A stretch of 64,000 nt of DNA from Thiothrix sp. (GTDB lineage Bacteria > Pseudomonadota > Gammaproteobacteria > Poriferisulfidales > GCA-002705445), in the NCBI GenBank assembly GCA_038141665.1, contig JAYQIN010000002.1:208263-272262 (forward strand), in the 5' to 3' direction. Positions 5,630 through 49,223 of this stretch are shown one piece after another (positions within the stretch are counted from its first letter, which is position 1; each line of letters begins with the position of its first letter). The notes under the pieces were generated by a model. That model saw nothing but the letters and a program-made list of their open reading frames with translations. It made no database searches and was not told the origin of the DNA. A program made the position numbers and the translations under genes.

Positions 5630-6304
5630 ATGAAATTAATACCTGCATTAGATTTGAAAAATAACAAAATTGTTACCTCATCAATTGGCAACAAGCGTGA
5701 ATATCAAGAAATATCATCAAAATTAGCCCCTTCATCAGACCCTTTAAGGTTCTTAGATTATATCCTTTCACTATATGATTTTAACACAATATATCTAGCA
5801 GATTTAGATTCAATTAAAGGATTTAATGCTGAAAATTTTCTTATCTCGGAGATATTGCAAGAACACAAAAATATTACGTTTATTATAGATAACGGGGTCA
5901 GATTATATTCCCAACTTAATGCTTATAAGTATAGTAATTTTACTCAGATTATTGCAACAGAGACATTTAAGGAATATCAGCTTGTAATAAATGAAGAATA
6001 TAATAATTATATACTTTCTTTAGATATTATTAATAAAAGAATTATTTGCAAGAATAATCAATACAAAAAATTAAAGCCAGAAAAAATTATATTAATGGAC
6101 ATTGATAGTATTGGAAAAAAATCTGGAATCAATTGTAAAAACATTGATTTACTAGGTAATATTTTTCCGAGATCGAAGATTATGCTAGCTGGAGGAATAA
6201 GTGGTAATGAAGATATTATTGAAGCTGAAAAAAAAGGTATTTCAGGAATAATATTATTAACAGCATTGCTGGAAAATAAAATTAATTATGAAAAAAATTT
6301 ATAG
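5630..6304 (+). CDS. HisA/HisF-fold (ProFAR-isomerase-related) TIM-barrel protein, COG1411-like
   Basis: N-terminal MKLIPALDLKNNKIV mirrors HisA IIPAIDLKDGKVV. Internal YLADLD, ILMDIDSIGKKSG and LAGGIS phosphate-binding elements are present. Histidine biosynthesis context is absent. Confidence 0.5.
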   Translation: MKLIPALDLKNNKIVTSSIGNKREYQEISSKLAPSSDPLRFLDYILSLYDFNTIYLADLDSIKGFNAENFLISEILQEHKNITFIIDNGVRLYSQLNAYKYSNFTQIIATETFKEYQLVINEEYNNYILSLDIINKRIICKNNQYKKLKPEKIILMDIDSIGKKSGINCKNIDLLGNIFPRSKIMLAGGISGNEDIIEAEKKGISGIILLTALLENKINYEKNL

Positions 6305-6922
6305 TTTAAATTTTTTTATTATTTCATCTATTATATCTTTTTGAACACTCATTTTGTCTTGAGTTGCATCAATAACCTTTATTCTTTTTTTATTAGAACT
6401 AGCAATTTTTATATAACCATTATAAACATCTTCAAAAAAATTATTATCTAGATTTTCAAATCTATCTTTTGTTTTATTTCTTGGAAACCTTTTCTTTGCT
6501 AATTTATGAGGCAAATCAAAAAAAATTGTTAACTCTGGAATGATATTATCTGTAAAATTATCAACTAATGTTTTAATTTTATTTATATTTACTTTTTTTC
6601 CATAACCTTGATAAGCATACGAAGCATCTATGAATCTATCACAAAGAACCCAATAACCTTCATTTAATTTTGGCACAATAATTTCTTTTATATGTTGATT
6701 TCTTATTGAGAATAATAATAATAACTCTGCTTCCGAAGATATAACTGATTTATTATTTAATAGTATATTTCTAATTGATTCGCCAAATTTTGTTCCACCC
6801 GGTTCACGTGTGCAATAAACTTTTATATTATTTTTTCTAAATATTGTTTTATATAATTTATTGTTGTTGTTTTACCAACACCTTCAATTCCTTCAAAGCT
6901 AATTAATTTTCCAGTTTTCATA
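6299..6922 (-). pseudogene. tmk: Thymidylate kinase with a frameshift in a T6/A6 homopolymer (probably a sequencing indel; functional gene expected)
   Basis: From ATG 6922 the frame reads MKTGKLISFEGIEGVGKTTTINYIKQYLEK (P-loop) and then stops. Adding one A to the run at 6831-6836 restores ...NNIKVYCTREPGGTKFGE... and joins it to ORF 6299-6676. This is the position expected in fabF-pabC-mltG-tmk synteny. Confidence 0.8.
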
Positions 6923-6924
6923 AT

Positions 6925-7920
6925 TTATTTTTGATATTTATTGACAGCTTTCAAATGATCTTTGTAGTTTTTAGAAAATATATGTTTTCCTTTATCATCT
7001 GCTACAAAATACAAGTACTTGTTTTTCTCAGGTTTACTTGCTGCTTTTATTGAGCTCTCTCCAGGAGAGCATATTGGAGTCCTGGGTAAGCCATCGATCT
7101 TATAAGTATTATATTCGTTTACAGTCTGTAAGTCTTTCTTTGTAATATTTCCTCCAAAATCCTTAATTCCATATATGACAGTTGGGTCAGCCTGCAACCT
7201 CATATTTTTATTTATTCTATTTATGAAAACCCCTGATATAATAGCTTTTTCTTCATCTATTGATGTTTCTTTTTCAATAATTGAAGCCATGATTAGCATT
7301 TCATAAGGAGATTTATATGGTAATGAAAAATCTCTGTTTTTCCAATATTTCATTAAAATATTATCCATATTTTTTACACACCTCTCTAAAAAACTATCTA
7401 TAGTTATACCAGAAGAGAATTTATAAGTATCGGGAAAACACGATCCCTCAGGTGAAAGATATTTTATTCTAGACGGAAAGATTTTTTTATAGTAATTTTC
7501 ATTTTTACTATGTTTTACTAGCTTGCTACCTATCAAAGTGTCAATAATCTTTTTATACGTAGAACCTTCATAAATAATCACTGTATCTTGTACAACTTTT
7601 CCATTAATAAATTTTAGGATCATCGTATATTCTGTTTCGTTTTTATCTATCAGATATTTTCCATTGTTAAATGTAGGATTTATATCAAATAAGTAAAGAA
7701 TAACTTTAGCTCTAAAGATGGAATTTAATAATTCTAACGACTTTAAATTTGATAAAGTTTTTGAAATACTATCACCTTGCTTAATTGTGTATGTACTTAA
7801 ATTTTTTGAATAAATATTTTTATTTAAAGAAAAATTTAAAAAAGATAAAAAAAGGAAAAAAAATATAAAAAAAGACAATATGAATATTTTAAATATAATT
7901 TTTTTTTTAAGATAATTCAT
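6925..7920 (-). CDS. mltG: Endolytic murein transglycosylase MltG (YceG)
   Basis: N-terminal TM segment and a YceG-like domain with GLPPTPIxxPG (here GLPRTPICSPG). The gene sits between pabC and tmk as in E. coli. Confidence 0.8.
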   Translation of the reverse strand: MNYLKKKIIFKIFILSFFIFFFLFLSFLNFSLNKNIYSKNLSTYTIKQGDSISKTLSNLKSLELLNSIFRAKVILYLFDINPTFNNGKYLIDKNETEYTMILKFINGKVVQDTVIIYEGSTYKKIIDTLIGSKLVKHSKNENYYKKIFPSRIKYLSPEGSCFPDTYKFSSGITIDSFLERCVKNMDNILMKYWKNRDFSLPYKSPYEMLIMASIIEKETSIDEEKAIISGVFINRINKNMRLQADPTVIYGIKDFGGNITKKDLQTVNEYNTYKIDGLPRTPICSPGESSIKAASKPEKNKYLYFVADDKGKHIFSKNYKDHLKAVNKYQK

Positions 7921-8722
7921 TATTTACTATTTTTATCAATTCTTTAATTAAATTATTTTTTTTATATTTTGTACTTGATATAGATTTTATATTCCATATA
8001 AGTCTGACTGAATTACAAAAAAACGCTGCATCATAATTATTTATGTCCTTTTTATTAATATATTTTTTTATGACGTCGTAATTATTTTTTTTTAAAAGAG
8101 TTATTAAAAAAGCTTTCATTACACCTTCTACACCCGATCTTTCAATTATTGGCGTATAAAATTTTCTATCTTTTATAAAAAATATGTTACTTGATATACC
8201 TTCGATTATATTATTGTGTGTATCACAAAGTATTAATTCGGGGAAATTTTTAGATAGCTCACTTGTTGCTAATACTTGTTCAAGTCTATTAGAGTGCTTA
8301 ATCTTTGATAGATTTTCATTTTCTGTTAGATTTTTTTTTGAAAATTTTGTTTTTATGCCATTATCTGTATATTCCTTTGGATATTTTGGTGCTTTACTTG
8401 TTGTTATTATGATATTGGGTTTATTGTTTACATTATCTATATTGTAACCTCTCCTTATTGCTGTTCCTCGTGTTACATTTATATTTAAGATGCAATTTTT
8501 TTCGTCGACTAGAGCTTTATCTATTTGTTTGCATAAAACACTTAAATCTAAATTAATTATTTTAAGTACTTTGCAGCCTTTTTTTAATCTATTTAGGTGA
8601 GATCTTAAATTATGAGGAATTTTGTTAATTACTAATATTGTTTCGAATATCGAGTCGCCGTATAAGAAGCCTCTGTCAAATATTGAAATACTTGAGCTAG
8701 GTTTTCCATTAACTAAATTCAT
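7907..8722 (-). CDS. pabC: Aminodeoxychorismate lyase (class IV aminotransferase fold)
   Basis: 271 aa fold-type IV PLP enzyme lying immediately downstream of fabF, the conserved pabC position. Confidence 0.7.
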   Translation of the reverse strand: MNLVNGKPSSSISIFDRGFLYGDSIFETILVINKIPHNLRSHLNRLKKGCKVLKIINLDLSVLCKQIDKALVDEKNCILNINVTRGTAIRRGYNIDNVNNKPNIIITTSKAPKYPKEYTDNGIKTKFSKKNLTENENLSKIKHSNRLEQVLATSELSKNFPELILCDTHNNIIEGISSNIFFIKDRKFYTPIIERSGVEGVMKAFLITLLKKNNYDVIKKYINKKDINNYDAAFFCNSVRLIWNIKSISSTKYKKNNLIKELIKIVNNELS

Positions 8723-8724
8723 AA

Positions 8725-9975
8725 TTACATGCGTTTAAATATTAATGTGCCATTAGTTCCACCAAACCCAAATGAATTTGACATGGCGACTTTAACTTCT
8801 TTTTCTCTCGCAATTTTTGGGACATAATCGAGATCACACTCTGGATCTTGATTATTTAGATTTATTGTTGGAGGCAATATATTATCTTTTATAGCTAATA
8901 CAGAAAATACTGCCTCAACTCCTCCTGCAGCTCCTAATAAATGGCCTATCATTGATTTTGTAGAGCTTACTGGGGTATTTTTTGCATTATCAATCCCTAA
9001 TGCAGTTTTTATGGCGTCTGTTTCTGCCTTGTCTCCAGCAGGAGTTGATGTTCCATGAGCATTTATATAATCAACCTCATTTTCATTGAGAGATGCTTCT
9101 CTTAAAGCAAGTTTCATACATTTTGCCGCGCCTGCCCCACCTGCTGCAGGCTGAGTCATATGGTGAGCGTCACTATTAATACCAAAACCTACAATTTCAC
9201 AATATATGTTTGCTCCACGTTTTTTTGCATGCTCATAATCCTCAAGAACTAAAATACCAGCACCATCGCCAAGAACAAAACCATTTCTATCAACATCACA
9301 TGGTTTGCTAGCTGTTTCTGGGTCATCGTTGTTTGAAGAGCAAAGAGCTTTTGCAGATGCGAAACCACCAATTCCTAATGGACATGTAGCCATTTCTGCC
9401 CCTCCAGCAATCATGCAGTCTACATAACCGTGTTTAATTAATCTTGCAGCATCTCCTATGCTATGAGTCCCAGTTGCACATGCTGATACTAAAGATAAAT
9501 TTGGACCTGTAATTCCATACATAATAGATAAATATCCAGAAACCATATTTATAATAGAACTTGGAACAAAAAATGGAGATATTTTTCTGGGTCCATTTTC
9601 TAAAAAGTTTACATAATTTCTTTCAATATAGGGTAAACCACCTATACCTGAACCAATTGATATACCAACTCTATCACTATTTTCTTCTGATATTTCTAAA
9701 CCAGCATCATTTATAGCCATTACACTAGCCCCAATACCATAATGGATAAAGGTATCCATTTTTTTTTGATTCTTTGGAGATATAAATTCGTCCGCATTGA
9801 AATCAGTTACTGAACCAGAAATTTGCACTGAAAAGGAAGATGCATCAAAAGATGTAATTTTCCTTATACCGCTAACTCCATTTTTAATATTAGTCCACGC
9901 TTTATCTATAGTTGATCCAACAGGCGAAACTATTCCTAATCCTGTTACTACTACACGTCTGGTATTCTCTGTCAT
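8725..9975 (-). CDS. fabF: 3-oxoacyl-ACP synthase II
   Basis: 416 aa KAS II with the active-site Cys (ACATG) and the two His (HGTSTPAGD, GHLLGAAG). Confidence 0.9.
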   Translation of the reverse strand: MTENTRRVVVTGLGIVSPVGSTIDKAWTNIKNGVSGIRKITSFDASSFSVQISGSVTDFNADEFISPKNQKKMDTFIHYGIGASVMAINDAGLEISEENSDRVGISIGSGIGGLPYIERNYVNFLENGPRKISPFFVPSSIINMVSGYLSIMYGITGPNLSLVSACATGTHSIGDAARLIKHGYVDCMIAGGAEMATCPLGIGGFASAKALCSSNNDDPETASKPCDVDRNGFVLGDGAGILVLEDYEHAKKRGANIYCEIVGFGINSDAHHMTQPAAGGAGAAKCMKLALREASLNENEVDYINAHGTSTPAGDKAETDAIKTALGIDNAKNTPVSSTKSMIGHLLGAAGGVEAVFSVLAIKDNILPPTINLNNQDPECDLDYVPKIAREKEVKVAMSNSFGFGGTNGTLIFKRM

Positions 9976-10002
9976 TATAAATTAAATTTTAATATATTAA
10001 GG

Positions 10003-10236
10003 TTACTTGCTGTTTGCCTCAACATAAGCATTTGCTTGCGCCACTGTTGTAATTTTTTCAGCCTCTTCATTTGGAATTTCACAATCAAACTCTTCCTCTA
10101 ATGCCATAACTAACTCTACAGTGTCAAGCGAATCTGCGCCTAAATCATCTACGAAAGAAGCATTTTCAGTGATTTGATCTTCCTTAACACCAAGTTGCTC
10201 CATAATTACTTTTTTTACTCTTTCTTCATTGCTCAT
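10003..10236 (-). CDS. acpP: Acyl carrier protein
   Basis: 77 aa with the [20 protein letters not shown] phosphopantetheine attachment site. Confidence 0.95.
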
Positions 10237-10314
10237 GCTATCCCCTATTGGTTGTGATGCTTATAAAACCCGCTCATTCTATTAAATATATGCAAGATAA
10301 TCCAGAAATGATTA

Positions 10315-11058
10315 CTATGGCATAAATAAGCCTCCATTTACATTTATTGTTTCTCCAGTTATGTAAGATGCTTTGTCAGATGCCAAAAAAGATACCGCAT
10401 AAGCAATATCCTCTGCTTTTCCCATCTTATTTACAGGAATATTTTTAGATATTTGCTCTTTTTGAGCGTCATTCAGCTTATCTGTCATGTCTGTTTCGAT
10501 AAAACCAGGCGATACACAGTTTACAGTAATCCCTCTGGTGGCAACCTCTTTTGCCAATGATTTGCAAAATCCCACCATTCCAGATTTTGATGTAACATAG
10601 TTTGTCTGTCCAGCATTACCGGTACTTGCAACGACTGAAGAAATACAAATAATTCGACCTTTTCTCTTTTTTATCATAGGTTTAACAAATATTTTTGATA
10701 TTTTGTATAAAGAGTTAATATTGGTTTCAATTGTATCAAACCATTGATTATCATCCATACGTATCAGAAGATTATCGTTAGTTATTCCAGCATTACTAAC
10801 AAGAATATCAGGTGTATCAGAATAATCTTCATTTATACTTTCAAAAAGGCTATTAATTGAATCTTGATCTTTGATATCTAATTTATATGCTTTTCCTTCA
10901 ATATTATTAGCTTCTAATTCTTTTTTAAGTAAATTAATTGAATTGTCACTTGTACCAGTTCCAAGGACGATATAATCATGTTTTGACATTTCTTTAGCGA
11001 TTGCCAAACCTATTCCTCTTGTTGCTCCAGTTATAAGTGCTATTTTTTTATTGTTCAT
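10315..11058 (-). CDS. fabG: 3-oxoacyl-ACP reductase
   Basis: SDR with TGATRGIG cofactor motif, NAG and YxxxK. Confidence 0.9.
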   Translation of the reverse strand: MNNKKIALITGATRGIGLAIAKEMSKHDYIVLGTGTSDNSINLLKKELEANNIEGKAYKLDIKDQDSINSLFESINEDYSDTPDILVSNAGITNDNLLIRMDDNQWFDTIETNINSLYKISKIFVKPMIKKRKGRIICISSVVASTGNAGQTNYVTSKSGMVGFCKSLAKEVATRGITVNCVSPGFIETDMTDKLNDAQKEQISKNIPVNKMGKAEDIAYAVSFLASDKASYITGETINVNGGLFMP

Positions 11059-11981
11059 AAACTGCTCAATGTCTCTAGTGCTGCTTCTAAACTAACCACA
11101 TCAGAAACAGACAATGATTTTATACTATTATCAATTCTTTTGTTAAAAGATGTGAGAACCTTACCAGGTCCCAATTCTAACATCGTATCAACTCCTTGTT
11201 GTTCCATATGCTCTACAGTCTCAATCCAACGGACAGAAGAATATAGCTGCCTTACTAAAGCATCTTTTATTTTATTTTCTTCTTGTTCAGTTTTAACGTC
11301 AACATTATTTACAACAGGAATATTGGGCGTGTTAAAATTAAATTTATTAATAAATTCTTCGAATATTTTTGATTGCTCAATCATTAAAGATGAATGAGCT
11401 GCTACGCTAACTGGTAAAGGTATAATTTTCTTTGCATTATTAGATGTAGCTAAATCCGACAATTGTTTTACTCCTTCCTCTGTACCAGATATAACAATTT
11501 GGCCTGGAGCATTTAAATTAGCAATACTAACTTCACTTAAAGTGTTTTCTTCATATATATTTTTAAGTTTTTGATAATCAATACCAATCACAGCAGCCAT
11601 TTTGCCAGCAGGTGCAGCCTTCATACATTGGGCTCTTTTTTTTACTAGATTTACAGCATCTTTAAATTTCAATGCACCCGAGGCACACAGAGCTGTGTAT
11701 TCTCCAAAACTATGGCCTGCTAAATAAATGGGGCTATCTCCGCCTTCATCATTCCATATTTTCCAAATTGCAAATGATGCGCATAACATTATTGGTTGTG
11801 TAAATTCTGTATCATTAATTTTAGTTTCTGGACCATTTTTTGTAATTTTCCAAAGATCGCAGGAAAGGATATCAGATGCTTCTTCAAAAATTTCTGAAAC
11901 TATATTATATGAAGACTTTAGATCTTTAAGCATTCCAATACTTTGAGAGCCCTGCCCTGGAAATAAAATTCCTAAACCCAT
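11055..11981 (-). CDS. fabD: Malonyl-CoA-ACP transacylase
   Basis: GQGSQ and GHSFGEY active-site motifs. Confidence 0.9.
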   Translation of the reverse strand: MGLGILFPGQGSQSIGMLKDLKSSYNIVSEIFEEASDILSCDLWKITKNGPETKINDTEFTQPIMLCASFAIWKIWNDEGGDSPIYLAGHSFGEYTALCASGALKFKDAVNLVKKRAQCMKAAPAGKMAAVIGIDYQKLKNIYEENTLSEVSIANLNAPGQIVISGTEEGVKQLSDLATSNNAKKIIPLPVSVAAHSSLMIEQSKIFEEFINKFNFNTPNIPVVNNVDVKTEQEENKIKDALVRQLYSSVRWIETVEHMEQQGVDTMLELGPGKVLTSFNKRIDNSIKSLSVSDVVSLEAALETLSSL

Positions 11982-12124
11982 TTATTAACTCCGCTGATTA
12001 TGCAGTAAATCAAAATATACTTAAAAGCACGTATACTAATGAAAACAAATATCTGTTATACTTTACATTAATTTTTTTAACTTAAAAACATAAATAATAC
12101 AATATTTATTTTGAATATAAAAAT
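11982..12124. promoter_or_regulatory. Divergent promoter region between fabD (-) and infA (+)
   Basis: This 143 bp AT-rich gap is the only non-coding interval between oppositely oriented operons here, so both promoters must lie within it. Confidence 0.3.
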
Positions 12125-12343
12125 ATGGCGAAAGAAGAACATATAGAAATGGAAGGTACAGTTATTGATACATTGCCTAACACCATGTTTAGAGTAGAGT
12201 TAGAAAATGGTCATATTGTAACTGCCCATATTTCTGGAAAGATGAGAAAGAATTACATTAGGATTTTAACTGGCGATAAAGTTACAGTAGCGCTTACACC
12301 ATATGATTTAACAAAAGGCAGAATAACTTTCAGAGATAGATAG
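12125..12343 (+). CDS. infA: Translation initiation factor IF-1
   Basis: 72 aa S1-like protein; [13 protein letters not shown]...FRVELENGH is near-identical to bacterial IF-1. Confidence 0.95.
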
Positions 12344-12358
12344 TTATATAAAAAATTT

Positions 12359-12811
12359 ATGTCTTGGGTACCCCATATTACTGTTGCATCAATAATTGAA
12401 AATAATAACAATTATTTATTTGTTGAAGAATATGTAAATAATAAAAAAGTTCTTAATCAGCCAGCAGGTCATTTAGAAGAAAATGAAACTCTTGAAGAGG
12501 CATGTATAAGAGAAACTTTCGAGGAAACAAATTATTTAGTAGAGGTTGATTATTTAATTGGAATTTACCAAGAAAGAAGAAAATCATCATTAGACATGTG
12601 GCTAAGATTTTGTTTTAAATGCAGTATAGTTGAAGAAGATTCAAATAAAGAACTTGATAAAGCGATAATAAGGAAATTATGGTTGCCAAAAAGTGAAATC
12701 CTAGAACCAAAAATAACTTTAAGAAGCAAAATGGTTTTAAAATGCATCAATGACTTTGAAAAAGGAAAAAATTATCCAAAAAATATTATTAACAATTTAT
12801 TAGAAAAATGA
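12359..12811 (+). CDS. NUDIX hydrolase
   Basis: Nudix box GHLEENETLEEACIRETFEETN. Confidence 0.8.
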   Translation: MSWVPHITVASIIENNNNYLFVEEYVNNKKVLNQPAGHLEENETLEEACIRETFEETNYLVEVDYLIGIYQERRKSSLDMWLRFCFKCSIVEEDSNKELDKAIIRKLWLPKSEILEPKITLRSKMVLKCINDFEKGKNYPKNIINNLLEK

Positions 12812-14491: not shown

Positions 14492-14512
14492 ATTAAACAA
14501 GGATAAATTCTA

Positions 14513-17149: not shown

Positions 17150-17185
17150 ATTATTTTATACCGCCCTTTGTTAACTCTAACGGAT

Positions 17186-18540
17186 CTAAAACTTTTTTAG
17201 CTCTTTTTCGGATAAATTAGTTTCCTCAAGGGCGATTTCAATAATAGGCTTCCCTGTTTTGTATGCTTTTTTAGCTATAAAAGCACCTTTTTCATAACCT
17301 ATAACTCTATTTAAGGCAGTTACTAATATTGGATTAGCATTAATAGATTTATTAACAATAGCTTCGTTAACTTTAAAATCTAGAATTGATTTTTTAGATA
17401 AACTTACTGCAGTATTTGAAATAATATTTATGCTTTGTACAATATTATAAGCAATAATTGGTAAAGTTACATTTAGTTGAAAATTACCAGTCTGACCACA
17501 AACCATAATCGTAGTATCATTGCCTATAACTTGTGAGCATGCCATTATTGCTGACTCAGGAATCACAGGATTAACTTTTCCAGGCATTATACTACTTCCA
17601 GGCTGTAAAGCATTTAAAGTTATATCAGAAATCCCAGATCCTGGTCCAGAGTTCATCCACCTCAAGTCATTTGAAATTTTAATTAAAGAAACAGCTAAAG
17701 ATTTTAAATGTGAACTAAATAGAACAATATCATCTTGTGAGCTTAAACCCTCAAATTTATTTTTTTTATCAGTATACTTAATTGTACTTTCCGCATTTAA
17801 CGATTTTATGCATTCTCTTGTAAATAATTTATGCGCATTAATCCCTGTGCCAACTGCTGTTCCACCTATGGGTAATCTTTTTAATCTCATAATACAAGTT
17901 TTTAAACTAGCCAAGTTATCATCTATTTGAGCTTTCCAGCCCGATATCTCTTGTCCAAAAGTAACTGGCATTGCATCCATAAGATGCGTTCTACCAGTTT
18001 TGACAACTTTATTTAGTTTCTTTGATTTTGTATTAAGATCTTTTGATAAAATATTTAAAGACGGAACTAACTTTGTTAAAGCCAAATTATAGGCACAATG
18101 ATTTATACCAGTAGGAATAACATCATTTGAACTCTGTGACATATTTACATGGTCATTTGGATGCACGTTTATTTTAAATTTTTTTTCGCAATGTTTGATA
18201 TAACTTCATTTACATTCATATTTGTACTAGTACCTGATCCTGTCTGAAAAACATCTACTGGGAAATGATCAACATCATAGAAATTAATTAAATACTTTGC
18301 AGATTTTACAATTGCATCGCTAATTTTTTTATCCAACAAACCTAATTTATAGTTAGCCTTCGCGGCAGCAATCTTAATTAATAAAATGCTTACAATAAAT
18401 TCTTTTGGCATTACTAAATCACTGATAGCAAAATTATCAATAGCCCTTTGCGTCTGTGGACCATACAAAGCATTTTTAGGTATATCTACTTTACCCATAC
18501 TGTCTTTTTCAATTCTGAAGTTATTTTTTTGATTTTTCAT
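17186..18540 (-). pseudogene. fumC: Class II fumarate hydratase with a frameshift in a T8/A8 homopolymer (probably a sequencing indel)
   Basis: ORF 18169-18540 gives the N-terminus through [15 protein letters not shown]...IAKKNLK and then stops. ORF 17186-18166 continues with HPNDHVNMSQSSNDV and GSSIMPGKVNP. Adding one A in the run at 18179-18186 fuses them into a ~455 aa FumC. Confidence 0.85.
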
Positions 18541-31546: not shown

Positions 31547-32431
31547 CTAATCTTTTTGAGATAAGTATATAGCTATTACAACAAGACATAGTGATATTAT
31601 TGAATAAAAATTAAATTTTTCCTCTAAGACTATTACGCCAGCAAAGAAAGCAAATATAGGTATTGGGTAGTTAACTAAACTTAAAAAGCTTGGGCCATAA
31701 TCTTGAATAATTTTATAATAAATAACTGTAGCTGCTGCTGTTGAAAATACTGCCATAAATAGCAAAGAAACCACAGAGTCATAAAATATTGTGTTGTAAT
31801 CTAGATTATCTTGATGTGTGAAAACTAAAATAAAAAGTAACTGCATAGAAGATATTATCATTACACATGCAGAAAGAGGTATTACATCAATACTATTTAA
31901 TTTTTTAACAAGAAGCGCATTTAAAGCATAAAAAAAGGCTGCGCTTACTACCAAAAGCTTAGAAAAAATGTTGTCATATAAATTAACACTACTTTCATTA
32001 TTAATTAATAAAATAAACAAACCAACAAATCCTAAAGTAAATCCTAATATTTTTCTAAAATTAAGTTTCTCGTAATGAAAAAAATAGTGTGATCCAATAA
32101 TAGTAAAAATAGGCATAAAACCTATGAGAATTCCTGTTTCTCCACTATTTATAGTAATTTGAGCATGACTAATAAGATAAAACGGAACAGTGGTGCCAGT
32201 TAATCCTAATATAAAGAGTAATTTAAAATTTCTTTTGATAAAATTATATGAGTAACCACAAAACTTTGAATATAAATAAAGTAAAAATGCAGCTATAAAG
32301 ACTCTAAAAAAAGCAATATATATTGGTGAAAATGATTTTAAAGAAATCTCAATAAGTAAAAATGCGCTCCCAAAGAGAAAAACCAAGGTTGAAAAATAAA
32401 ACCATTTAAAAAAATAATTGCTAAAAAACAT
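31547..32431 (-). CDS. EamA/DMT-family transporter
   Basis: 294 aa with about 10 TM helices in two EamA-like halves. Confidence 0.65.
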   Translation of the reverse strand: MFFSNYFFKWFYFSTLVFLFGSAFLLIEISLKSFSPIYIAFFRVFIAAFLLYLYSKFCGYSYNFIKRNFKLLFILGLTGTTVPFYLISHAQITINSGETGILIGFMPIFTIIGSHYFFHYEKLNFRKILGFTLGFVGLFILLINNESSVNLYDNIFSKLLVVSAAFFYALNALLVKKLNSIDVIPLSACVMIISSMQLLFILVFTHQDNLDYNTIFYDSVVSLLFMAVFSTAAATVIYYKIIQDYGPSFLSLVNYPIPIFAFFAGVIVLEEKFNFYSIISLCLVVIAIYLSQKD

Positions 32432-32895
32432 AGCTAATCATAAACAAAATAATACCTGAAAATAGAGCAGCAATAATATCGTCAAGCATTACGCCAAAAC
32501 TATTCTTAATTTTCTTATCTACTAATGAAATGGGAAATGGTTTTACAATATCAAAAAAACGAAAAATTATAAATCCAAATATAACATTTTTAATATTATT
32601 TTCAAAAAAAATCATAAAAATTAAATATCCAAATATTTCATCAATAACTATAGACTTATCATCTTTATCTAAAAAAATAGATTTTTTGTAGGAATAATTT
32701 AAAAGAAGGATAGAAGAAAAGAAAAAGTACTAATAACAAAAAAATATTTTCATATAATGTATTAAAAGATATAAGTTGAAATATTAAAACACCTACGAGT
32801 GTTCCAAATGTTCCTGGCATGTATTTACTTTTTCCTGAATAAAATCCTGTTAAAAATATATTTATTAATTTATTTTTCATTACAAAAATGCTCAT
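32421..32895 (-). pseudogene. pgpA: Phosphatidylglycerophosphatase A with a frameshift in an A7/T7 homopolymer (probably a sequencing indel)
   Basis: ORF 32665-32895 carries the PgpA N-terminus (MPGTFGTL). ORF 32421-32615 carries the C-terminus (FRFFDIVKPFPI, FGVMLDDIIAA). Removing one T from the run at 32671-32677 gives a continuous ...KIYFLDKDDKSIVIDEIFGYLIF..., consistent with an intact PgpA. The gene is in the conserved position after thiL. Confidence 0.8.
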
Positions 32896-38004: not shown

Positions 38005-38018
38005 ATAGGCTCATCATT

Positions 38019-39305: not shown

Positions 39306-39334
39306 CTTTATCTCCTTACTCCATGTAATGTAAA

Positions 39335-40425: not shown

Positions 40426-40436
40426 ATAATACTCTC

Positions 40437-40646: not shown

Positions 40647-40650
40647 TTTT

Positions 40651-41646: not shown

Positions 41647-43394
41647 TATTGAAATATTTGTGAATTATAAAGTTTGTGGTAGTCGCCTTTCTTTTGAATT
41701 AAATCTTTATGATTTCCTACTTCTATTATGCTTCCATTCATCATTACAACTATCTTATCTGCATTTTCTACTGTTGATAGCCTATGTGCAATAACAATAG
41801 TAGTTCTGCCTATTTTCAAGCTATCAAGTGCTTTTTGTATATATTGTTCTGATACAGCATCTAATGAAGAAGTTGCTTCATCAAAAATTAGAATATGAGA
41901 GTCTTTTAAAAATGCTCTTGCAATAGCTAATCTTTGTCTTTGGCCTCCAGATAAGAGAACACCATTTTCTCCAATCATAGTATTAATTCCTTCTGGCATA
42001 TCATTAACAAAATCTAATGAGTAAGATTTTTCCAAGGCTTCAATTATTTTCTCATCACTTGAATTCTCTTTTCCATATGTAATATTATTTTTAATAGTAT
42101 CGTTAAATAAAATTGTATCTTGACCAACATAACTTATATTTTTTCTTAATGTATCTATTGTTAAATCGTTTATGTTTACATCATCTATACTTATTACTCC
42201 AGATGATAAATTATAAAGTCTAGGAATCAAATTAACGAGTGTTGATTTACCACATCCTGACATACCAACTAAAGCTACGAATTTTCCTGATTCTATTTTC
42301 AAATTTATATTATTTAAAATATTTGAGTCAGAACTATCATATTTAAAAATCACATTACTAAATACTATACTATTATTAATATTAATATTATTTATAGTGC
42401 CATTATCAAATTCTGATTTTTCATCTATTAATTCGAAAATATTTTCTCCGGCAGCTATACCTTGTTGCAGTCTTGCATTTATACTTGCCAAGCCTCTTGC
42501 TGGCCCTAAAATCATAAACATAGCAAACATAAATGATACAAATGAACCGACAGTAATTGTTTCTAAGATAAAATCAAACGTTGATAACAATATTATACCT
42601 GATAAAGATGAGCCAACTATCAACATTATAACTGCGCTATTTATACCTTCTGTAAGAGCTAATTTCATATGACTATCTTTATTAAAATTATTCGTACTTT
42701 TAAATCTATCTATTTCTTTTTCATAGCCTTTAAAAATTTTCACTATTTTATTTCCTTGAATAACTTCTTGCGCTACATGAATAATACTTCCAACTGAGTT
42801 TTGAGCATCATGTGTAAGATTTCTAAACTTTTTATTTAATGCACTAACAAGAATAACTATAAATGGAGCGGCAGTCATAAAAAATAAAGTTAATTCCCAG
42901 CTTAGATAAAGCATCCAAATCAATAGACCGATAATTGTTAATGTATCTCTTATTAGAATAATTAAACTTCTTGATGCAACAGATGAGAGTAATTCAACAT
43001 TATGAGAAATACGTGACATTAAGTCTCCAGATGATGATTTATCATAAAACGATATTGGCAGACTTAATATTTTATTAAACATCATTTCTCTTAATCTATA
43101 AACAAGTGTTCTTCCAACTTTTGCCATATAGAATATAGTTAGGAATATTCCAATAGATCTTATAAAAAAAATTGAAAATAGTCCTAGAGGCAATAAATTA
43201 ATTACAGATTGGTCTCTTTCTATAAATCCACCATCTAATATAGGTTTCATTATAGCTGATAAAGCCGGATCACTTAGCGCCGTAATAATCATCCCAAAAA
43301 TTGCGATTGATAAAGGAAAACTATTATTTTTTAGCGCTATACCAATCAATCTACTATATATAGCCCAGCCGTTTTTTTGATTACTTTCTTTCAA
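41646..43394 (-). CDS. msbA: Lipid A export ABC transporter (permease-ATPase fusion)
   Basis: 582 aa: a 6-TM domain plus an NBD with Walker A (GMSGCGKST), the signature LSGGQRQR and Walker B (ILIFDEATS). Confidence 0.9.
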   Translation of the reverse strand: MKESNQKNGWAIYSRLIGIALKNNSFPLSIAIFGMIITALSDPALSAIMKPILDGGFIERDQSVINLLPLGLFSIFFIRSIGIFLTIFYMAKVGRTLVYRLREMMFNKILSLPISFYDKSSSGDLMSRISHNVELLSSVASRSLIILIRDTLTIIGLLIWMLYLSWELTLFFMTAAPFIVILVSALNKKFRNLTHDAQNSVGSIIHVAQEVIQGNKIVKIFKGYEKEIDRFKSTNNFNKDSHMKLALTEGINSAVIMLIVGSSLSGIILLSTFDFILETITVGSFVSFMFAMFMILGPARGLASINARLQQGIAAGENIFELIDEKSEFDNGTINNININNSIVFSNVIFKYDSSDSNILNNINLKIESGKFVALVGMSGCGKSTLVNLIPRLYNLSSGVISIDDVNINDLTIDTLRKNISYVGQDTILFNDTIKNNITYGKENSSDEKIIEALEKSYSLDFVNDMPEGINTMIGENGVLLSGGQRQRLAIARAFLKDSHILIFDEATSSLDAVSEQYIQKALDSLKIGRTTIVIAHRLSTVENADKIVVMMNGSIIEVGNHKDLIQKKGDYHKLYNSQIFQ

Positions 43395-43442
43395 ATTCTT
43401 ATATATACTTAATTTACTATTTAAAACACATATTTTACATCA

Positions 43443-43940
43443 ATGATTAAAAATGTAATCAAAAGATTATTTCCAAAGCTAGATGCTGTAAAAGAGGAAA
43501 AAATCTTAAAAATTTTTGGGCCAGCTGTTTTACAACCTAATTTATGGCACATAAATAAAAAATCTGTTTCCAGAGGTTTTGCAATTGGTGCATTTTGCGC
43601 CTTTCTACCAATTCCAGGCCAAATGATAATTGCCGCTTTTCTTTCCATAACTTTTGCTGCAAATCTTCCTATATCTGTTATTTTAACATGGATTTCAAAT
43701 CCCTTTACTTATACTCCGATATTTTATTTTGCATATAAGATTGGAAAAATTATTATAAATGCAGATATTAATGTAGATGAAAAACAAATTGATATACTTT
43801 CAAACATCAAAGATATATGGGAGCCTTTACTCTTAGGATCAATTATACTAGCAATTATAGGTTCAATAATAAGTTATATTTTGATTAGAGTATATTGGAG
43901 GTATTACGTCATTAAAGTTTGGTCAAAAAGAAAAAAATAA
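43443..43940 (+). CDS. DUF2062 membrane protein
   Basis: 165 aa; the motifs RGFAIGAFCAFLPIPGQM and WISNPFTYTPIFY match the DUF2062 family. Confidence 0.6.
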   Translation: MIKNVIKRLFPKLDAVKEEKILKIFGPAVLQPNLWHINKKSVSRGFAIGAFCAFLPIPGQMIIAAFLSITFAANLPISVILTWISNPFTYTPIFYFAYKIGKIIINADINVDEKQIDILSNIKDIWEPLLLGSIILAIIGSIISYILIRVYWRYYVIKVWSKRKK

Positions 43941-43944
43941 AAGA

Positions 43945-44613
43945 CTAAATATTTACTAACTTACCATTTTCAATCATTAAACTCATATCAAGTTTTGAAG
44001 CAATATCTAGATCATGTGTAGCCATTATCAAACTTGATTTGTTATAGCTTACCAAATCACTTAGTAAAGAAAAAATATTATTAGCATTTTTTTTATCAAG
44101 ATTTCCAGTAGGCTCATCAGCAAAAATAATTTTCGGCTTATGAATAATTGATCTTGCGATTGCAACCCTTTGACGTTCTCCACCGGAAAGTTTGTCAATT
44201 TGAAAATCTCTTCTATTATGCATATCAATCTGTAAGATTACTTCATTAACACTTTTTTCAATATAAGATTTACTTTTATTAGCTATTTGAAGAGGTAGGG
44301 AGATATTTTCTTTTACTGTTAATTCATTTATAAGATGGTGAAATTGGTATATAAAGCCTATTGTATTTAATCGTATTTCACATAATTTATTTTCACTATA
44401 ATTTGACAGTAACCTTCCGTCTAGTTCAATAGTTCCAGAATCTGCCTTATCTAGTAAAGATAGAACATGCAGCATGGTACTTTTTCCACTTCCAGATGCC
44501 CCTATTACTGCCATTGTTTCTGAGTCAGAGATTTTTAAATTTATATCATCTAAAATATTTATTTTGTTATTTCCATCTGAGTATGATTTATTAATATTTT
44601 TACAAACTAACAT
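43945..44613 (-). CDS. lolD: Lipoprotein-releasing system ATP-binding protein
   Basis: ABC ATPase with GASGSGKST, LSGGERQR and IIFADEPTGNLD; next to the lolC/E permease. Confidence 0.85.
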   Translation of the reverse strand: MLVCKNINKSYSDGNNKINILDDINLKISDSETMAVIGASGSGKSTMLHVLSLLDKADSGTIELDGRLLSNYSENKLCEIRLNTIGFIYQFHHLINELTVKENISLPLQIANKSKSYIEKSVNEVILQIDMHNRRDFQIDKLSGGERQRVAIARSIIHKPKIIFADEPTGNLDKKNANNIFSLLSDLVSYNKSSLIMATHDLDIASKLDMSLMIENGKLVNI

Positions 44614-44614
44614 A

Positions 44615-45859
44615 CTAATTTCCTTTGAGTGTTTCTGCGGGCATTGTTTTTGAGGCGTTTAACGATGGGTAAATAGTTGCCAAAATAGAAAGAATAAATG
44701 AAGCTAAAGAAACATATATTAGATCAAATATTTCAACTTTAGCTGGAACAGAACTTATCATATATATATCAGAATCAAGTATATTTCTTCCTAAAAAGTA
44801 TTCTATCAATCTAACAATATAGTCTAAATTAAATGATATTAATAAACCTAATATTACTCCAAGTATAATGCCAGCTACCCCAAGAAGAGTTCCTTGCAAT
44901 ATAAATATTTGCATTATGCCTCTTGAATGCATTCCTAAAGTTTTTAAAATAGCAATATCAGATTTCTTTTCTGACACAACCATAAACAATGAAGATATAA
45001 TATTAAAAGTTGCTACCAAAACTATGAGAAGCATCAATAATAAAAGCATTGTCTTTTCCATTTGCAATGCATTAAAGAAGTTTTTATTCATCATAGTCCA
45101 ATCTATAACTATATAGTCAGATTTATATTTTGATCTAATAATATTTGACATGCTTGGTGATAAAAATAAATCATGGAGCTTTAGTCTAAGCCCTGAAACA
45201 TTTTTTCCTGTTCCAAATAATAGTTGAGCTTCTTTAATATCAATAAAAACTAAATTTTTATCATACTGCTGCATTCCAAAATTAAATATTGATGAAACTT
45301 CAAATCTTTTTATTGTAGGGACAATTCCTATTATTGTTGAATTGGCTCTAGGTATTACTAAAGTTATCTTATCACCAATACTTAAACTCATTTTCTTTGC
45401 TAAATCTTTTCCAATAGATATTTGATAAGGTTTGTTTCCTATTTCATCAAGATTTCCGTTTATAATATTTTTTTTTAAGCTTGTGACATTTTTTTCGTAC
45501 TCTGGAATAATTCCTTTAACTTGAATACCATGCACATTGTTACCAAAGCTTATCATAGCTTGTCCTTCAACATAAGGAGCTGATCCATATACAAGATTAT
45601 TTTTATCTATCTTAGATTTAATCTTATTCCAATCTTTTAAAATATAATTTTCTTCAGTAATAATAACATGAGACACCATGCTCAATATTTTATTTCTCAT
45701 TTCATTATGAAAGCCATTCATAATTGACATTACAACTATAATTGCTGCAATTCCAAGAGATATACCTATGACAGATGATTTAGATATAATAGATGTAAAT
45801 CTACTACTTTTCTTTGATCTTAGAAACTTATAAGCTATGTAAAAGGATGTGTAATTCAT
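44615..45859 (-). CDS. lolC: Lipoprotein-releasing system permease LolC/E
   Basis: 414 aa with a MacB-like periplasmic domain and an FtsX-type 4-TM topology. Confidence 0.8.
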   Translation of the reverse strand: MNYTSFYIAYKFLRSKKSSRFTSIISKSSVIGISLGIAAIIVVMSIMNGFHNEMRNKILSMVSHVIITEENYILKDWNKIKSKIDKNNLVYGSAPYVEGQAMISFGNNVHGIQVKGIIPEYEKNVTSLKKNIINGNLDEIGNKPYQISIGKDLAKKMSLSIGDKITLVIPRANSTIIGIVPTIKRFEVSSIFNFGMQQYDKNLVFIDIKEAQLLFGTGKNVSGLRLKLHDLFLSPSMSNIIRSKYKSDYIVIDWTMMNKNFFNALQMEKTMLLLLMLLIVLVATFNIISSLFMVVSEKKSDIAILKTLGMHSRGIMQIFILQGTLLGVAGIILGVILGLLISFNLDYIVRLIEYFLGRNILDSDIYMISSVPAKVEIFDLIYVSLASFILSILATIYPSLNASKTMPAETLKGN

Positions 45860-46401
45860 TATTCCCCATCTACTATTGAATTAATTTTTATTAGCACATA
45901 ATTGGATGGTTTAAGATTAATGGTGCCTGAACTTCCAATAAAATCACCAACCATTATCATAGCTTTTTTATGTTTAGATATTCTAGCTTCAACAATAATA
46001 TCTTTTGCTGAAGATAATGTGTGTGATTCAATCATGCTCATTGTATTATCTAGTCTAACAGTATAGTTTTTTTTTGATTTAATAACATCAAAAATATTAA
46101 TAGCTAATGGGATACGCATGCCATTTTTATTTCTTGCATAAACAAACAAAACCTCATTTCCTTCAATTTTAGATAAAATATCTTCATGAATTGAAACCGT
46201 TATATCAATAATTGGCTCTTTAGATTGAAAATAATATGAAATTTTATATCTAATGTATTCACTTGAGTAAGAGTATATTCCCAGTGATAAAAAAGGGATA
46301 AAAATAATCAAAAAAATATAAATTTTTTTCAGATTCAAGTTTTTACTTAGTGGTTTAGGTTCCTGATTTTTTTTAAAATTTATTTCATTTTTTCTATTCA
46401 A
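45859..46401 (-). CDS. Hypothetical membrane-anchored periplasmic protein
   Basis: 180 aa with one N-terminal TM helix. Both ends overlap a neighbour: its stop with the lolC start (ATGA) and its start with the ccmH stop. Confidence 0.4.
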   Translation of the reverse strand: MNRKNEINFKKNQEPKPLSKNLNLKKIYIFLIIFIPFLSLGIYSYSSEYIRYKISYYFQSKEPIIDITVSIHEDILSKIEGNEVLFVYARNKNGMRIPLAINIFDVIKSKKNYTVRLDNTMSMIESHTLSSAKDIIVEARISKHKKAMIMVGDFIGSSGTINLKPSNYVLIKINSIVDGE

Positions 46402-46765
46402 ATTTTTTTTTATTTTTTTTAAAAATAAAGTATATATAAAGAGCGGAAACTAAAAGAATAATAAAAGGGCTATACCATAAAAACCAAGTAGATTTTTTTA
46501 GAGGAGGATTATATAAAACATAATCAGTGTATCTATCAGACATGAATTTATATATTTCGTCTTCATTCTTACCAAGATCTAACATTGTTTTTACTTTTGC
46601 TCTTAAGTCTTTTGCTAAATTTGAGTCAGATTCGGAAAGTGATTGATTTTGACATACTAAGCACCTAAGATTCTCAATAATTTCATTGTATTTTCTTTCA
46701 TCTAAGGCATGCGAAATATTTTGTGAAAAAAGTATAACTAGTATAAGTATAATTTTTCTTTTCAT
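46394..46765 (-). CDS. ccmH: Cytochrome c-type biogenesis protein CcmH/CycL
   Basis: Signal peptide, the LRCLVCQNQSL (CxxC) motif and a C-terminal TM. Confidence 0.85.
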   Translation of the reverse strand: MKRKIILILVILFSQNISHALDERKYNEIIENLRCLVCQNQSLSESDSNLAKDLRAKVKTMLDLGKNEDEIYKFMSDRYTDYVLYNPPLKKSTWFLWYSPFIILLVSALYIYFIFKKNKKKFE

Positions 46766-47280
46766 TATTTTAAGTTTGGTAATATTACTTTATTATAATA
46801 ATTTTCATCTATTGGTCCAACGTGTTTGTGAATTATAATTCCTTTTTTATCTATTAAAAAAGTTTCGGGAGCACCATAAACTCCAAAATCAATTGCAATA
46901 TTTCCTTTGTTGTCATATATATTATATTTGTAAGGGTTTCCTCTAACTTTCAACCATTCTAAAGCTGAACCTCTATTATCTTTATAATTTAAACCATATA
47001 TGTTGATAGTGCCACGTGAGTAAATATCTATTAAATGCTTGTGTTCTATACTGCATGCATAGCACCAGCTTCCCCATACATTAAGAATGTGCATTTCTCC
47101 AAGTAAGTCATTGTTATTAATTTTCTGATTATCAATTAAAGTGATAGATGAAAAAGTTGGCATTGCTTTACCAATCAAAGGAGATGGTATTAGCGTTGGA
47201 TCTTTGTTTAAACCACTATAAAGAAAGTATAGTATTACTAAAAAAATTAATATAGGTAAGACAGAAAGTTTATGAAGCAT
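46765..47280 (-). CDS. ccmG: Thiol:disulfide interchange protein CcmG/DsbE
   Basis: Thioredoxin fold with WCYAC and a GVYGAPETFLID motif. Confidence 0.85.
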   Translation of the reverse strand: MLHKLSVLPILIFLVILYFLYSGLNKDPTLIPSPLIGKAMPTFSSITLIDNQKINNNDLLGEMHILNVWGSWCYACSIEHKHLIDIYSRGTINIYGLNYKDNRGSALEWLKVRGNPYKYNIYDNKGNIAIDFGVYGAPETFLIDKKGIIIHKHVGPIDENYYNKVILPNLK

Positions 47281-49223
47281 TAGTAATTTTTTTTTCTATT
47301 TTATTTCTGCCAAATATACCAAATAAACCACCTAAAATCATTAATCCAACACCGTACCACAAGAATTGAATATATGGCTTATAATATATTCTTACAACCC
47401 ACGAATCTTTTCCAATATTTTCACCCAATGCTAAGTATATATCTCTGAAAAGACTAGAATCTATAGCAGCCTCTGTCATAACGTTTTTTTGAACACTATA
47501 GGTTCTCTTTTCAGGAAAGAAAGATACTAAATAATTATTATCTAAATAAGCATCAAAAATTCCAACCTGAGAAGTGTAATTTTTAGAAAATTTTGTTTGC
47601 ACATCAACAAATTTTATAGAAACATTGCTAATCATTACTTCTGAATTCTTATTCATTACTATTTCTTTCTGAATTGAATAATAATTACTTATAGTTATTC
47701 CAATAATTAGAACTCCAATACCTATATGTGATAAAAGATTCGCTAAAGATGATGCTGGTATATTAATAATTTTTTCTATAATTTTTTTGCCGTTTGAGAT
47801 CTTTGAAACTTGAAATATCTTTATAACAGAAGATAAAATAGTAAATACTGCTAAAAACATTGCAAGATATACAATAAGAATATCAGTTTCATAATATATA
47901 CTTAGAAATAAGTATGAAATTATAATTGAATAAAATAAAATATAACTAAGTTTCTTGACTAAAATTTTGTGATTTGATTTACTCCAACTGCTATATATGG
48001 CTGGAGACATAAGGAAAACTATTGGAAGTGTCAATGCCGAAAATATAAAATTAAAATATGGCGCTCCAACAGAAATTTTACCTAAATTTAACGAACTGGT
48101 AACTAAGGGATACAAAGTTCCAATTAATATTGCAAAAGTAGTAATTGTTAAAAATAGGTTATTCAATAAGAGTAAAAATTCTTTTGATGATACAGAATAT
48201 TGCTTATGAAATATTAAATTACGCGACTTTAAAAAATATAACGCTAATGAAGAGCCAATGATTGTTGTTAAAAATATTAATATGTAAAGACCTCTCTCGG
48301 GGTCATTTGCAAATGCATGTACAGAAACTAAGATTCCTGACCTAACTAAAAATGTTCCAAGCAAACTTAGTGAAAAGGTCAATATAGAAAGTAAAATACT
48401 CCAGTTAATAAATATTCCTCTTTTTTCAGAAACTATCAAAGAATGCAATAACGCAGTTATAGCTAACCATGGCATAAAAGATGCGTTTTCTACTGGATCC
48501 CAAAACCACCAGCCTCCCCAACCTAACTCATGATATGCCCACCAGCTTCCTAGAGAAATTCCAATTGTTAAAAACATCCATGATGATATCACCCATTTTC
48601 GTAACCATGATATCCATTCAATATTAATACTTCCATGTAAAAGAACGGAAATAGCAAACACAAATGGTACGCTTGTGCCCACATATCCTATGTATAACAT
48701 TGGAGGGTGTATTATTAAACCTGGGTCTTGTAAGAAGTGGGTTAAGGTCTCTTCCATTTAATGGAATAGGAAAAACTCTATCAAATGGGTTTGAACTAAA
48801 TAGTATAAATATTAAAAAAAATAATAATAAAAGACCCATTATAGATAACATGTCAACTATAAGTGTTTTGGGCATACTTTTAGAAAATATTGCTATTAAG
48901 GAACACCAAATTGACATAACAAAAACCCATAATAATATTGAGCCTTCATGTGCACCCCATACCGCAGAAAATTTATATACATTCTCTAAATTAATATTTG
49001 AGTTATTTGCAACATACCTTAAAGAAAAGTCATCAATTAAAAAGGCGTAAGCAAGAATAAAAAAAGAAGTAGCAATAAATATAGAAGTAATGTAGGAAAA
49101 GTTCCTGCAAAAAATAAATCTCGAGCTAATACTTATAGTATTTTTAAAAAAAATAAGAGCAAACATGCAAAATGAAAGTGAAGCTGAAATACTTAGAAAA
49201 ATATTACCTAATTCATTAATCAT
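47270..49223 (-). pseudogene. ccmF: Cytochrome c heme lyase subunit CcmF, interrupted by a 1-nt frameshift (probably a sequencing or assembly indel)
   Basis: ORF 48624-49223 has the N-terminus through ...NPFDRVFPIPLNGRDLNPLL. ORF 47270-48757 continues with QDPGLIIHPPMLYIGYVG and WGGWWFWDPVEN. The two frames meet at ctt-ctt-a-caa-gac (about 48730-48732), where one extra base breaks DLNPLLQDPGL. Confidence 0.85.

Follow-up and report, generated by a model that had tools for sequence, protein, structure and literature searches.

Residual single-base consensus errors as the probable cause of five split genes in a 64-kb stretch of an AT-rich marine gammaproteobacterial genome

Introduction

Consensus sequences built from long reads are prone to homopolymer indels that fragment gene calls (PMC9262707; PMC8812927; PMC12007338). 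Frameshifts in runs of A or T can also be real. In the endosymbionts Buchnera and Blochmannia, whose genomes are small and very AT-rich, housekeeping genes that are otherwise intact carry frameshifts in poly(A) tracts of at least 9 nt; these are conserved across populations and species (PMC3017870), and frameshifted essential genes are rescued by slippage (PMC3017870; reviewed in PMC5009743). A third known situation is that of the pseudogenes of reductive evolution, in which core genes of a small genome are interrupted and which are recognised by multiple lesions, a relaxed substitution pattern and sharing with relatives.

The stretch of DNA analysed here, 64,000 nucleotides in its full length and called the window below, bears some likeness to all three. 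It holds about 66 genes and comes from an uncultured, streamlined marine gammaproteobacterium with a GC content of about 28%. Its Mfd protein is identical to a protein (P0363) encoded on an NCBI contig of 1,105,664 bp, which fits a closed, long-read-type assembly, and the source of the window is probably an assembly of this kind, of a genome of about 1.1 Mb. The organism appears to be free-living and planktonic, because it turns up in metagenomes from Tara, JGI and reef seawater. Runs of A or T of at least 6 nt occur once every 157 bp, and genomes as rich in them as this one are a worst case, or a stress test, for platforms that miscount homopolymers.

For comparison we used same-species contigs with 97-99.4% nucleotide identity to the window, mostly short-read and with MEGAHIT-, SPAdes-, Tara-, JGI- and Logan-style assembly names, together with contigs of sister species. 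A scan of genome contigs returned species-level relatives only, at amino acid identities of at most 79%, and an Rfam scan of the window found nothing beyond two tRNAs.

Results

Six single-base indels split five genes

An earlier note, made from the sequence of the window, had reported tmk, fumC, pgpA and ccmF as interrupted. All four are indeed split, each into two open reading frames (ORFs), and one single-base edit per site gives a full-length protein. That list proved incomplete, as ccmH is also split, and the further claim that each gene carries exactly one 1-nt indel fails for fumC, which has two 1-nt deletions. The revised tally is thus six 1-nt indels that break the frame, spread over five of the approximately 66 genes, or about one per 10.7 kb in place of the one per 16 kb first estimated. 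The signs are mixed, as had been noted, with three losses and three gains, and single-base edits regained full-length orthologues at all six sites. The description of the genes as essential or near-universal was too strong for pgpA and fumC, which fall short of it in E. coli. Coordinates are given in Table 1.

Table 1. Interrupted genes, frameshift sites and one ambiguous site, in window coordinates
Feature	Position	Strand	State in the window	Comparison (change)
tmk (dTMP kinase)	6299..6921	-	32-aa and 125-aa ORFs by three-frame translation	
tmk frameshift site	6831..6836		T6 on + strand (A6 in gene)	7 required (-1)
Class II fumarase/aspartase-family gene (probable fumC)	17151..18540	-	two frameshifts	
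fumC frameshift 1	18179..18186		T8	9 nt in relatives (-1)
fumC frameshift 2 (absent from the earlier note)	17193..17198		T6	T7 in relatives (-1)
pgpA (phosphatidylglycerophosphatase A)	32421..32895	-	76-aa and 64-aa ORFs	
pgpA frameshift site	32717..32726		AAAAGAAAAA (10 nt)	9 nt in relatives (+1)
DUF2062 gene 3' end (ambiguous)	43931..43937		A7; 165 aa	A8 in L081, L101/L111; 168 aa
ccmH (CcmH and CycH-Ig fusion, 301 aa)	45859..46765	-	123 aa and 180 aa (TTG start)	
ccmH frameshift site	46403..46411		T9	T8 in frame by frame analysis (+1)
ccmF (haem lyase subunit)	47270..49223	-	199-aa and 495-aa ORFs	
ccmF frameshift site	48731		extra T (A in gene strand, CTTCTT[A]CAAGAC), outside homopolymer	(+1)

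The repaired Tmk protein (207 aa) scores 175.9 bits against TIGR00041 over residues 1-197, above the equivalog cut-off of 83.25. The gene is unbroken, at 207 aa, in three same-species contigs (L091, L093 and L094) and in three sister species (L001-L003); the tract is T7 in the former and in L001, with 7-nt equivalents in L002 and L003. The T6 of the window is found elsewhere only in L090 and L092, two error-rich '_pilon' contigs. A nearby difference at 6291-6297 (A7 against A9 in L091) was considered as an additional error and set aside, given that other strains have a 13-nt indel in this polymorphic region and that the 224-aa product in the window equals the sister-species length.

With both of its sites repaired, the fumC product (463 aa) is collinear with P0121 (463 aa), from which it differs at two residues within the first 451. 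It scores 501.7 bits against the NCBIfam fumC_II model (TIGR00979, cut-off 664.75) and 497.2 bits against the aspartase model NF008909 (cut-off 510), and on these matches is best described as a member of the fumarase/aspartase family, with FumC its probable identity; JGI names its relatives fumarate hydratase class II. At the first site six same-species assemblies have the in-frame length, as T9 in L091, L093 and L097 and as TTTCTTTTT in L095, L098 and L100, while the '_pilon' contigs L092 and L090 have T8 and T6. The second frameshift replaces the final 13 residues (VLDPLELTKGGIK) by a single F, so that the last 12 are lost. Here seven same-species assemblies have T7 and the nanopore-type L093 has T8, and the addition of one base makes the C-terminus identical to that of P0121.

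The repaired pgpA product (157 aa) matches NF008288 end to end at 100 bits, which is under the 226-bit equivalog cut-off. The 152-157-aa products of its relatives match PF04608 and the location of the gene after thiL is conserved; the product is therefore treated here as a putative PgpA-family protein. The interrupted genes are intact in all relatives examined, save that one error-prone MAG (GCA_038143975.1) has a pgpA break of its own. Five same-species contigs have a 9-nt tract at the frameshift site, A9 in L101, L104, L106 and L109 and AAAGAAACA in L102. An alternative placement of the indel, in the T7 and A6 runs near the premature stop, was also considered. An edit of the T7 run does open the frame, but the comparison puts the indel some 40 nt upstream.

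Two of these sites raise the question of whether strains assembled together gave a chimeric consensus, in which the assembler or polisher produced a tract length found in no strain. The species is polymorphic exactly at the tract at fumC site 1 (T9 and TTTCTTTTT) and in pgpA (A9 and AAAGAAACA), and the versions in the window resemble hybrids of the two alleles. No such polymorphism is seen at tmk, fumC site 2, ccmH or ccmF, however, which this explanation leaves unaccounted for, and a strain chimera is itself one kind of assembly artefact, not a biological explanation in its own right. We consider it extremely unlikely.

The repaired CcmF (650 aa) scores 665.4 bits against TIGR00353, above the cut-off of 569 for CcmF/NrfE proteins, and shares 99% identity with P0001, an intact protein of 650 aa; the gene order fits a ccmABCDE-F-G-H context. 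The extra base is missing from all three of the contigs compared, the Tara contig L089 as well as L088 and L111. Removal of one base from ccmH gives a 301-aa ORF whose full-length identity to CcmH (301 aa) of a sister species (L112) is 76%. The repaired architecture matches that in L088, and two same-species assemblies, like the sister species, have the fusion. The tract is T8 in both L088 and L111. This gene is the weakest case of the five, with support limited to the sister species L112 and to two error-prone long assemblies (L088 and L111).

The indels are private to the window among accurate assemblies

None of the six indels is present in any accurate, short-read-type assembly (Tara, JGI or Logan) that covers its site, or in the sister species, with the exception in coverage that no same-species short-read contig spans the ccmH site. 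At the other five sites between three and eight assemblies are in frame; at ccmH these are L088, L111 and L112 only. This result upholds the earlier reading of the assembly as indel-error-prone or under-polished.

Four of the six indels lie in A/T runs of 6-9 nt. The window has 407 runs of at least 6 nt, which together make up 2739 nt or 4.3% of its length, and by our own arithmetic on these run counts the binomial probability of such an enrichment is about 5e-5. The earlier statement that three of four indels lie in homopolymers of at least six bases is correct for tmk and fumC and incorrect for pgpA, where the tract is an interrupted one of A and T.

Gaps in coding regions relative to the short-read-type contigs are confined to the sites listed above, except for the 3' end of the DUF2062 gene and a pair in a NUDIX gene. 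The other gaps in the window, at 8724, 9986 and 40647, are intergenic, and the natural indels that separate strains lie between genes or at the 3' ends of genes. The DUF2062 site was left out of the tally of six. Its sister-species protein has three residues past KRKK, like the A8 version, and L088 also has A7. In the NUDIX gene the adjacent +1/-1 pair at about 12540/12544, seen against the error-prone MAG contig L091, is ambiguous between a substitution and an indel.

Long assemblies of the species other than that of the window have breaks of the same kind. Four '_pilon' contigs (L088, L090, L092 and L093) show 11 to 112 gap openings per 20-22 kb or so, and in about 62 kb of the NCBI MAG GCA_038143975.1 eight private indels break genes. 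Each long assembly has a different private set, as platform or polishing error predicts. Where lengths seen in the window do recur, as tmk T6 in L090 and L092 and fumC T8 in L092, the coincidence of position is consistent with systematic miscalling of homopolymers. In principle T6 and T8, being common to these contigs, could also represent a real segregating allele.

The interrupted genes show no sign of decay

In the restored frame the interrupted genes have no extra stops or other damage. Substitutions private to the window within them are 13 synonymous to one non-synonymous (11:1 in ccmF and 2:0 in tmk), and downstream of the shifts there are seven synonymous and zero non-synonymous changes.

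These data bear on the possibility that the indels are real and very recent, the product of slippage during replication of a genome of extreme AT content in which inactivation of the genes is just starting. The A/T runs that host four of the six are natural hotspots for slippage, endosymbionts of similar base composition gather frameshifts of this type (PMC3017870), and tmk T6 and fumC T8 do recur in L090 and L092. Those two contigs are full of other indels, however, and the lesions are missing from every short-read-type contig, including L098 and L100, which are 99.2-99.4% identical to the window. Secondary decay is lacking, as the substitution ratio indicates. By extrapolation, about 100 genes would be broken in the 1.1 Mb of a free-living organism, dTMP kinase and cytochrome c maturation among them, which is hard to square with viability. 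Although the window resembles reductive-evolution pseudogenes in its interrupted core genes and small genome, it has neither their multiple lesions, nor their relaxed substitution pattern, nor their sharing with relatives. We regard real mutation as very unlikely, and the indels are almost certainly sequencing or assembly errors in selectively maintained genes and not cases of real gene loss.

Slippage or frameshifting does not account for the set

Real frameshifts could also be tolerated if recoding rescued the products, either by slippage of the transcribing polymerase on poly(A), the mechanism of Buchnera and Blochmannia, or by -1 ribosomal frameshifting. Both fumC sites carry canonical slippery heptamers in phase, A_AAA_AAT at 18179-18186 and A_AAA_AAG at 17193-17198, where a -1 shift would yield the native protein, and ccmH has a run of nine A (A9) at its site; these three are the candidate slippage sites of the window. 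The heptamers, however, are an automatic by-product of losing one A from an in-frame A9T or A7G tract. The tmk site has no in-phase fit to X_XXY_YYZ, and the insertions in ccmF and pgpA lie in no slippery tract, so that slippage cannot rescue them.

Rescued frameshifts are conserved across populations and species (PMC3017870), whereas here every accurate assembly keeps the frame, as does the sister species. The window shares with Buchnera and Blochmannia a small and very AT-rich genome and shifts in A/T runs of housekeeping genes otherwise intact, but none of its shifts is common to accurate assemblies, its tracts are of 6-9 nt, with 9 nt reached at the ccmH site only, and two events lie outside tracts. 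Transcriptional slippage was rejected on the ground that the frameshifts are not conserved. Programmed frameshifting of the dnaX/prfB type was likewise rejected, as heptamers occur at the two fumC sites only and all orthologues are in frame. Recoding of either kind is an explanation to which we give almost no weight.

Discussion

We conclude, with a probability of about 0.9, that the window comes from an assembly with residual single-base indel errors, six of which, in coding sequence, would break five otherwise intact genes. The indels would have been introduced by base-calling, consensus building or polishing rather than by mutation in the cell. They resemble long-read or flow-based consensus errors in being single-base, enriched in A/T homopolymers, restricted to one assembly and missing from short-read assemblies of the species, in genes that are otherwise intact. 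They differ from simple run-length miscounts in two of the six events (ccmF and pgpA) and in the even 3:3 balance of signs. Mixed signs are a poor match to a model of pure undercalling. At about one indel per 10 kb the window lies far below the '_pilon' contigs of the species, which suggests that the source assembly was partially polished.

The finding is one of data quality, with no biological novelty. It would be otherwise if the frameshifts were real in a free-living AT-rich bacterium and slippage of the polymerase or ribosome on A tracts restored enough full-length protein; this we consider very unlikely, and were it true the rescued-frameshift phenomenon of endosymbionts would reach planktonic bacteria.

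The consequences of residual consensus error lie in how the gene content of the organism is read. Taken at face value, the window describes an organism without dTMP kinase, fumarase, PgpA and cytochrome c maturation (CcmF and CcmH), a reading that inflates pseudogene-based arguments for ongoing genome reduction. If the density of six per 64 kb were uniform, extrapolation gives roughly 100 spurious breaks in 1.1 Mb. Other public long assemblies, GCA_038143975.1 and the ERZ285480xx '_pilon' contigs, have the same problem, and for the gene content of the lineage one should therefore turn to short-read contigs or re-polished genomes.

Frame-breaking indels in five genes

The window carries a total of six frame-breaking 1-nt indels, in 5 of its ~66 genes. 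An earlier note had described tmk, fumC, pgpA and ccmF as interrupted by one indel apiece; all four interruptions were confirmed, full-length proteins being recovered by one-base edits at the interrupted genes, and the count of one per gene holds for tmk, pgpA and ccmF but not for fumC, which has two. That list of four was incomplete, as ccmH is a fifth broken gene. Signs are mixed as proposed, with three -1 and three +1. No break was seen in any other window gene, and lengths match those of same-species or sister-species orthologues.

Features of the window discussed in the text
Feature	Position	Strand	Detail
tmk frame break	6831-6836	-	T6 (A6 in gene strand); frame junction
fumC frame break 1	18179-18186	-	A8 run
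fumC frame break 2	17193-17198	-	A6 where A7 needed; deletion
pgpA indel	32717-32726	-	DNA alignment with five same-species contigs
ccmH frame break	46403-46411	-	T9 where T8 is in frame; gene 45859-46765
ccmF frame break	48731	-	extra base, CTTCTT[A]CAAGAC
PabB/anthranilate-synthase-like enzyme	within 1670-6304		PF00425
Two proteins, 200 and 348 aa	within 1670-6304		no Pfam match
ATP-grasp_3 protein	within 1670-6304		PF02655
HisA/HisF-like protein	within 1670-6304		PF00977
SBP56-family protein, cut by window end	within 60107-63999	-	PF05694
SCO1/SenC	within 60107-63999	-	PF02630
MauG-like di-haem peroxidase	within 60107-63999	-	PF03150
Thioredoxin-like protein	within 60107-63999	-	

Runs of at least 6 nt number 407 in the 64 kb, all of A or T (27 of them 9-10 nt long), with no G or C run of that length in the whole window. 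Because these runs cover just 4.3% of bases, the enrichment of indels in homopolymers is real (4 of 6 in runs of at least 6 nt). The pgpA indel had been misplaced. Frame analysis brackets the pgpA switch to 32665-32730, and the tract reads AAAAGAAAAA (10 nt) in the window versus A9 or AAAGAAACA (9 nt) in the five aligned contigs; the indel thus lies outside the T7/A6 runs that adjoin the premature stop. The ccmF switch site is not a homopolymer. Several in-frame A9/T9 tracts lie within essential genes of the window.

In tmk one frame reads MKTG...YLEKII and a stop, and another frame carries on as NNIKVYCTREPGG... Repaired Tmk and CcmF/NrfE both score over their NCBIfam cut-offs; repaired PgpA aligns end to end yet falls under the equivalog cut-off, and the repaired 'fumC' product has near-equal scores for the fumC_II and aspartase models, under both cut-offs. 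Homologues of this repaired fumarase are 463 aa rather than 451; the second deletion puts F and a stop in place of the native VLDPLELTKGGIK and stop.

The ccmH gene of the window is split into 123 aa and an ORF of 180 aa that starts at TTG, a seeming two-gene arrangement that results from the T9 indel. Once one base is taken out, the gene encodes a protein of 301 aa, 76% identical over its full length to CcmH of the sister-species contig L112 (8458-9363), where, as in the '_pilon' contig L088 (12073-12978), CcmH is one 301-aa protein. In this lineage CcmH (PF03918) is thus fused to a CycH Ig-like domain (PF23892), and a separate CcmI is absent. The same fusion ORF is called at 283 aa in L111, a contig of MAG GCA_038143975.1, its 5' end lost to that MAG's own indels.

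Comparison with other assemblies

Every one of the six sites that is covered by accurate assemblies, which were taken as short-read from contig names (k127_, k141_, NODE_..._cov, TARA scaffolds), is in frame there, including in contigs L098 (99.2% identity) and L100 (99.4% identity); no short-read-style contig spans the ccmH site. Over ~60 kb comparable with such contigs, coding-region gaps fall at the indel sites with two exceptions, and all other gaps are intergenic. One exception, a difference of 1 nt, lies at the very 3' end of the DUF2062 gene. The other, against the error-prone MAG contig L091, consists of neighbouring +1 and -1 gaps at ~12540/12544 in the NUDIX gene; the pair is ambiguous, and we read it as two substitutions. 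Natural strain indels sit in intergenic spacers or at extreme 3' gene ends (6291-6297, 8724, 9986, 40647, 43931-43937), in contrast to the frame-breaking indels private to the window; among them are 13 nt gained or lost where the HisA-like gene meets tmk, an indel of 6 nt in an intergenic spacer, and an A5/A6 difference between lpxK and trm112.

Real recent mutations in the sequenced organism are an unlikely explanation: by extrapolation, a free-living organism with a genome of 1.1 Mb would have some 100 of its genes broken, and none of the indels is shared with near-identical strains. Nor is relaxed selection seen. In ccmF and tmk, 13 of the window-private substitutions are synonymous and 1 is non-synonymous, with 7 and 0 downstream of the shifts, and this excess indicates that the full-length frames were under purifying selection along the window lineage.

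Rescue of the frameshifts by recoding deserves a mention, given the in-phase heptamers A_AAA_AAT and A_AAA_AAG in fumC and the A9 tract in ccmH. However, the fumC heptamers arise automatically once one A is deleted from the native tracts, and the ccmF and pgpA insertions lie outside any slippery tract. Where endosymbionts rescue frameshifts, different populations share them (PMC3017870), whereas those of the window are not conserved.

Fragmentation of gene calls by homopolymer indels is well documented for long-read consensus (PMC9262707; PMC8812927; PMC12007338), and every other long assembly of the species carries its own, differing gene breaks. In GCA_038143975.1 (JAYQMX010000002.1; 98-99% ANI, same species), about eight 1-nt indels within ~62 kb are private to that MAG, breaking trm112, pgpA, a 224-aa gene, lolC, ccmH (three indels) and a mauG-like gene, at sites where the window and short-read contigs are intact. 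Gap openings in the '_pilon' contigs number between 11 and 112 per 20-22 kb; in L088, the one itemised, these are mostly undercalled A/T runs. Two miscounts of the window are found again in these error-rich contigs, T6 of tmk in both L090 and L092 and T8 of fumC in L092, as expected of systematic homopolymer miscalling.

The same-species contigs L088, L090, L092 and L093 (ENA ERZ28548085/78/63, '_pilon') and L094 (ERZ26859011) are long, up to 1,097,920 bp. Each 20 kb contains dozens of undercalled homopolymers, and these errors split genes or fuse them (mfd, kdsB, fabF, acnA, nrdR-ribD, ccmF-ccmG). Products of those assemblies have entered the large protein collection, for example the 690-aa 'CcmF-CcmG' P0054.

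Taken from these sequence comparisons, assembly or sequencing error rather than biology is the supported origin of the six indels. The note's reading of an indel-error-prone assembly is supported by the in-frame lengths in accurate assemblies and the otherwise intact genes. We infer that the source assembly is closed, roughly 1.1 Mb and of long-read type. At two sites, fumC site 1 and pgpA, strains of the population differ within the tract; there a consensus built from mixed strains may play a part, but this would itself be artefact, not biology.

Gene content and relatives

The window is 27-28% G+C, with densely packed genes. It has the gammaproteobacterial order fabD-fabG-acpP-fabF-pabC-mltG-tmk, a ccmABCDEFGH cluster, and riboflavin and molybdopterin genes. 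Its nearest relatives in a species-representative genome collection are uncultured marine Gammaproteobacteria MAGs (~29% G+C) with conserved synteny and 70-79% MnmA identity. Same-species DNA (97-99.4% nt identity) was found in Tara Oceans, JGI, Logan and reef-seawater assemblies, and Mfd (51964-55404) is identical to the collection protein P0363, whose NCBI contig is 1,105,664 bp long.

The conserved cluster adjoining tmk (1670-6304), kept in the sister species, may encode a pathway for a pterin or folate-type cofactor. At 60107-63999, a four-gene cluster looks similar to the arrangement of mtoX (methanethiol oxidase) with SCO1 and mauG; this resemblance would suggest methanethiol oxidation in this streamlined planktonic lineage.

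Implications

Until the window's assembly is polished, neither its gene calls nor any conclusions drawn from it about pseudogenes or genome reduction are trustworthy, and the same caution applies to GCA_038143975.1 and the same-species '_pilon' contigs. The broken genes are almost certainly not a real feature of the organism's biology; they are useful as quality control.
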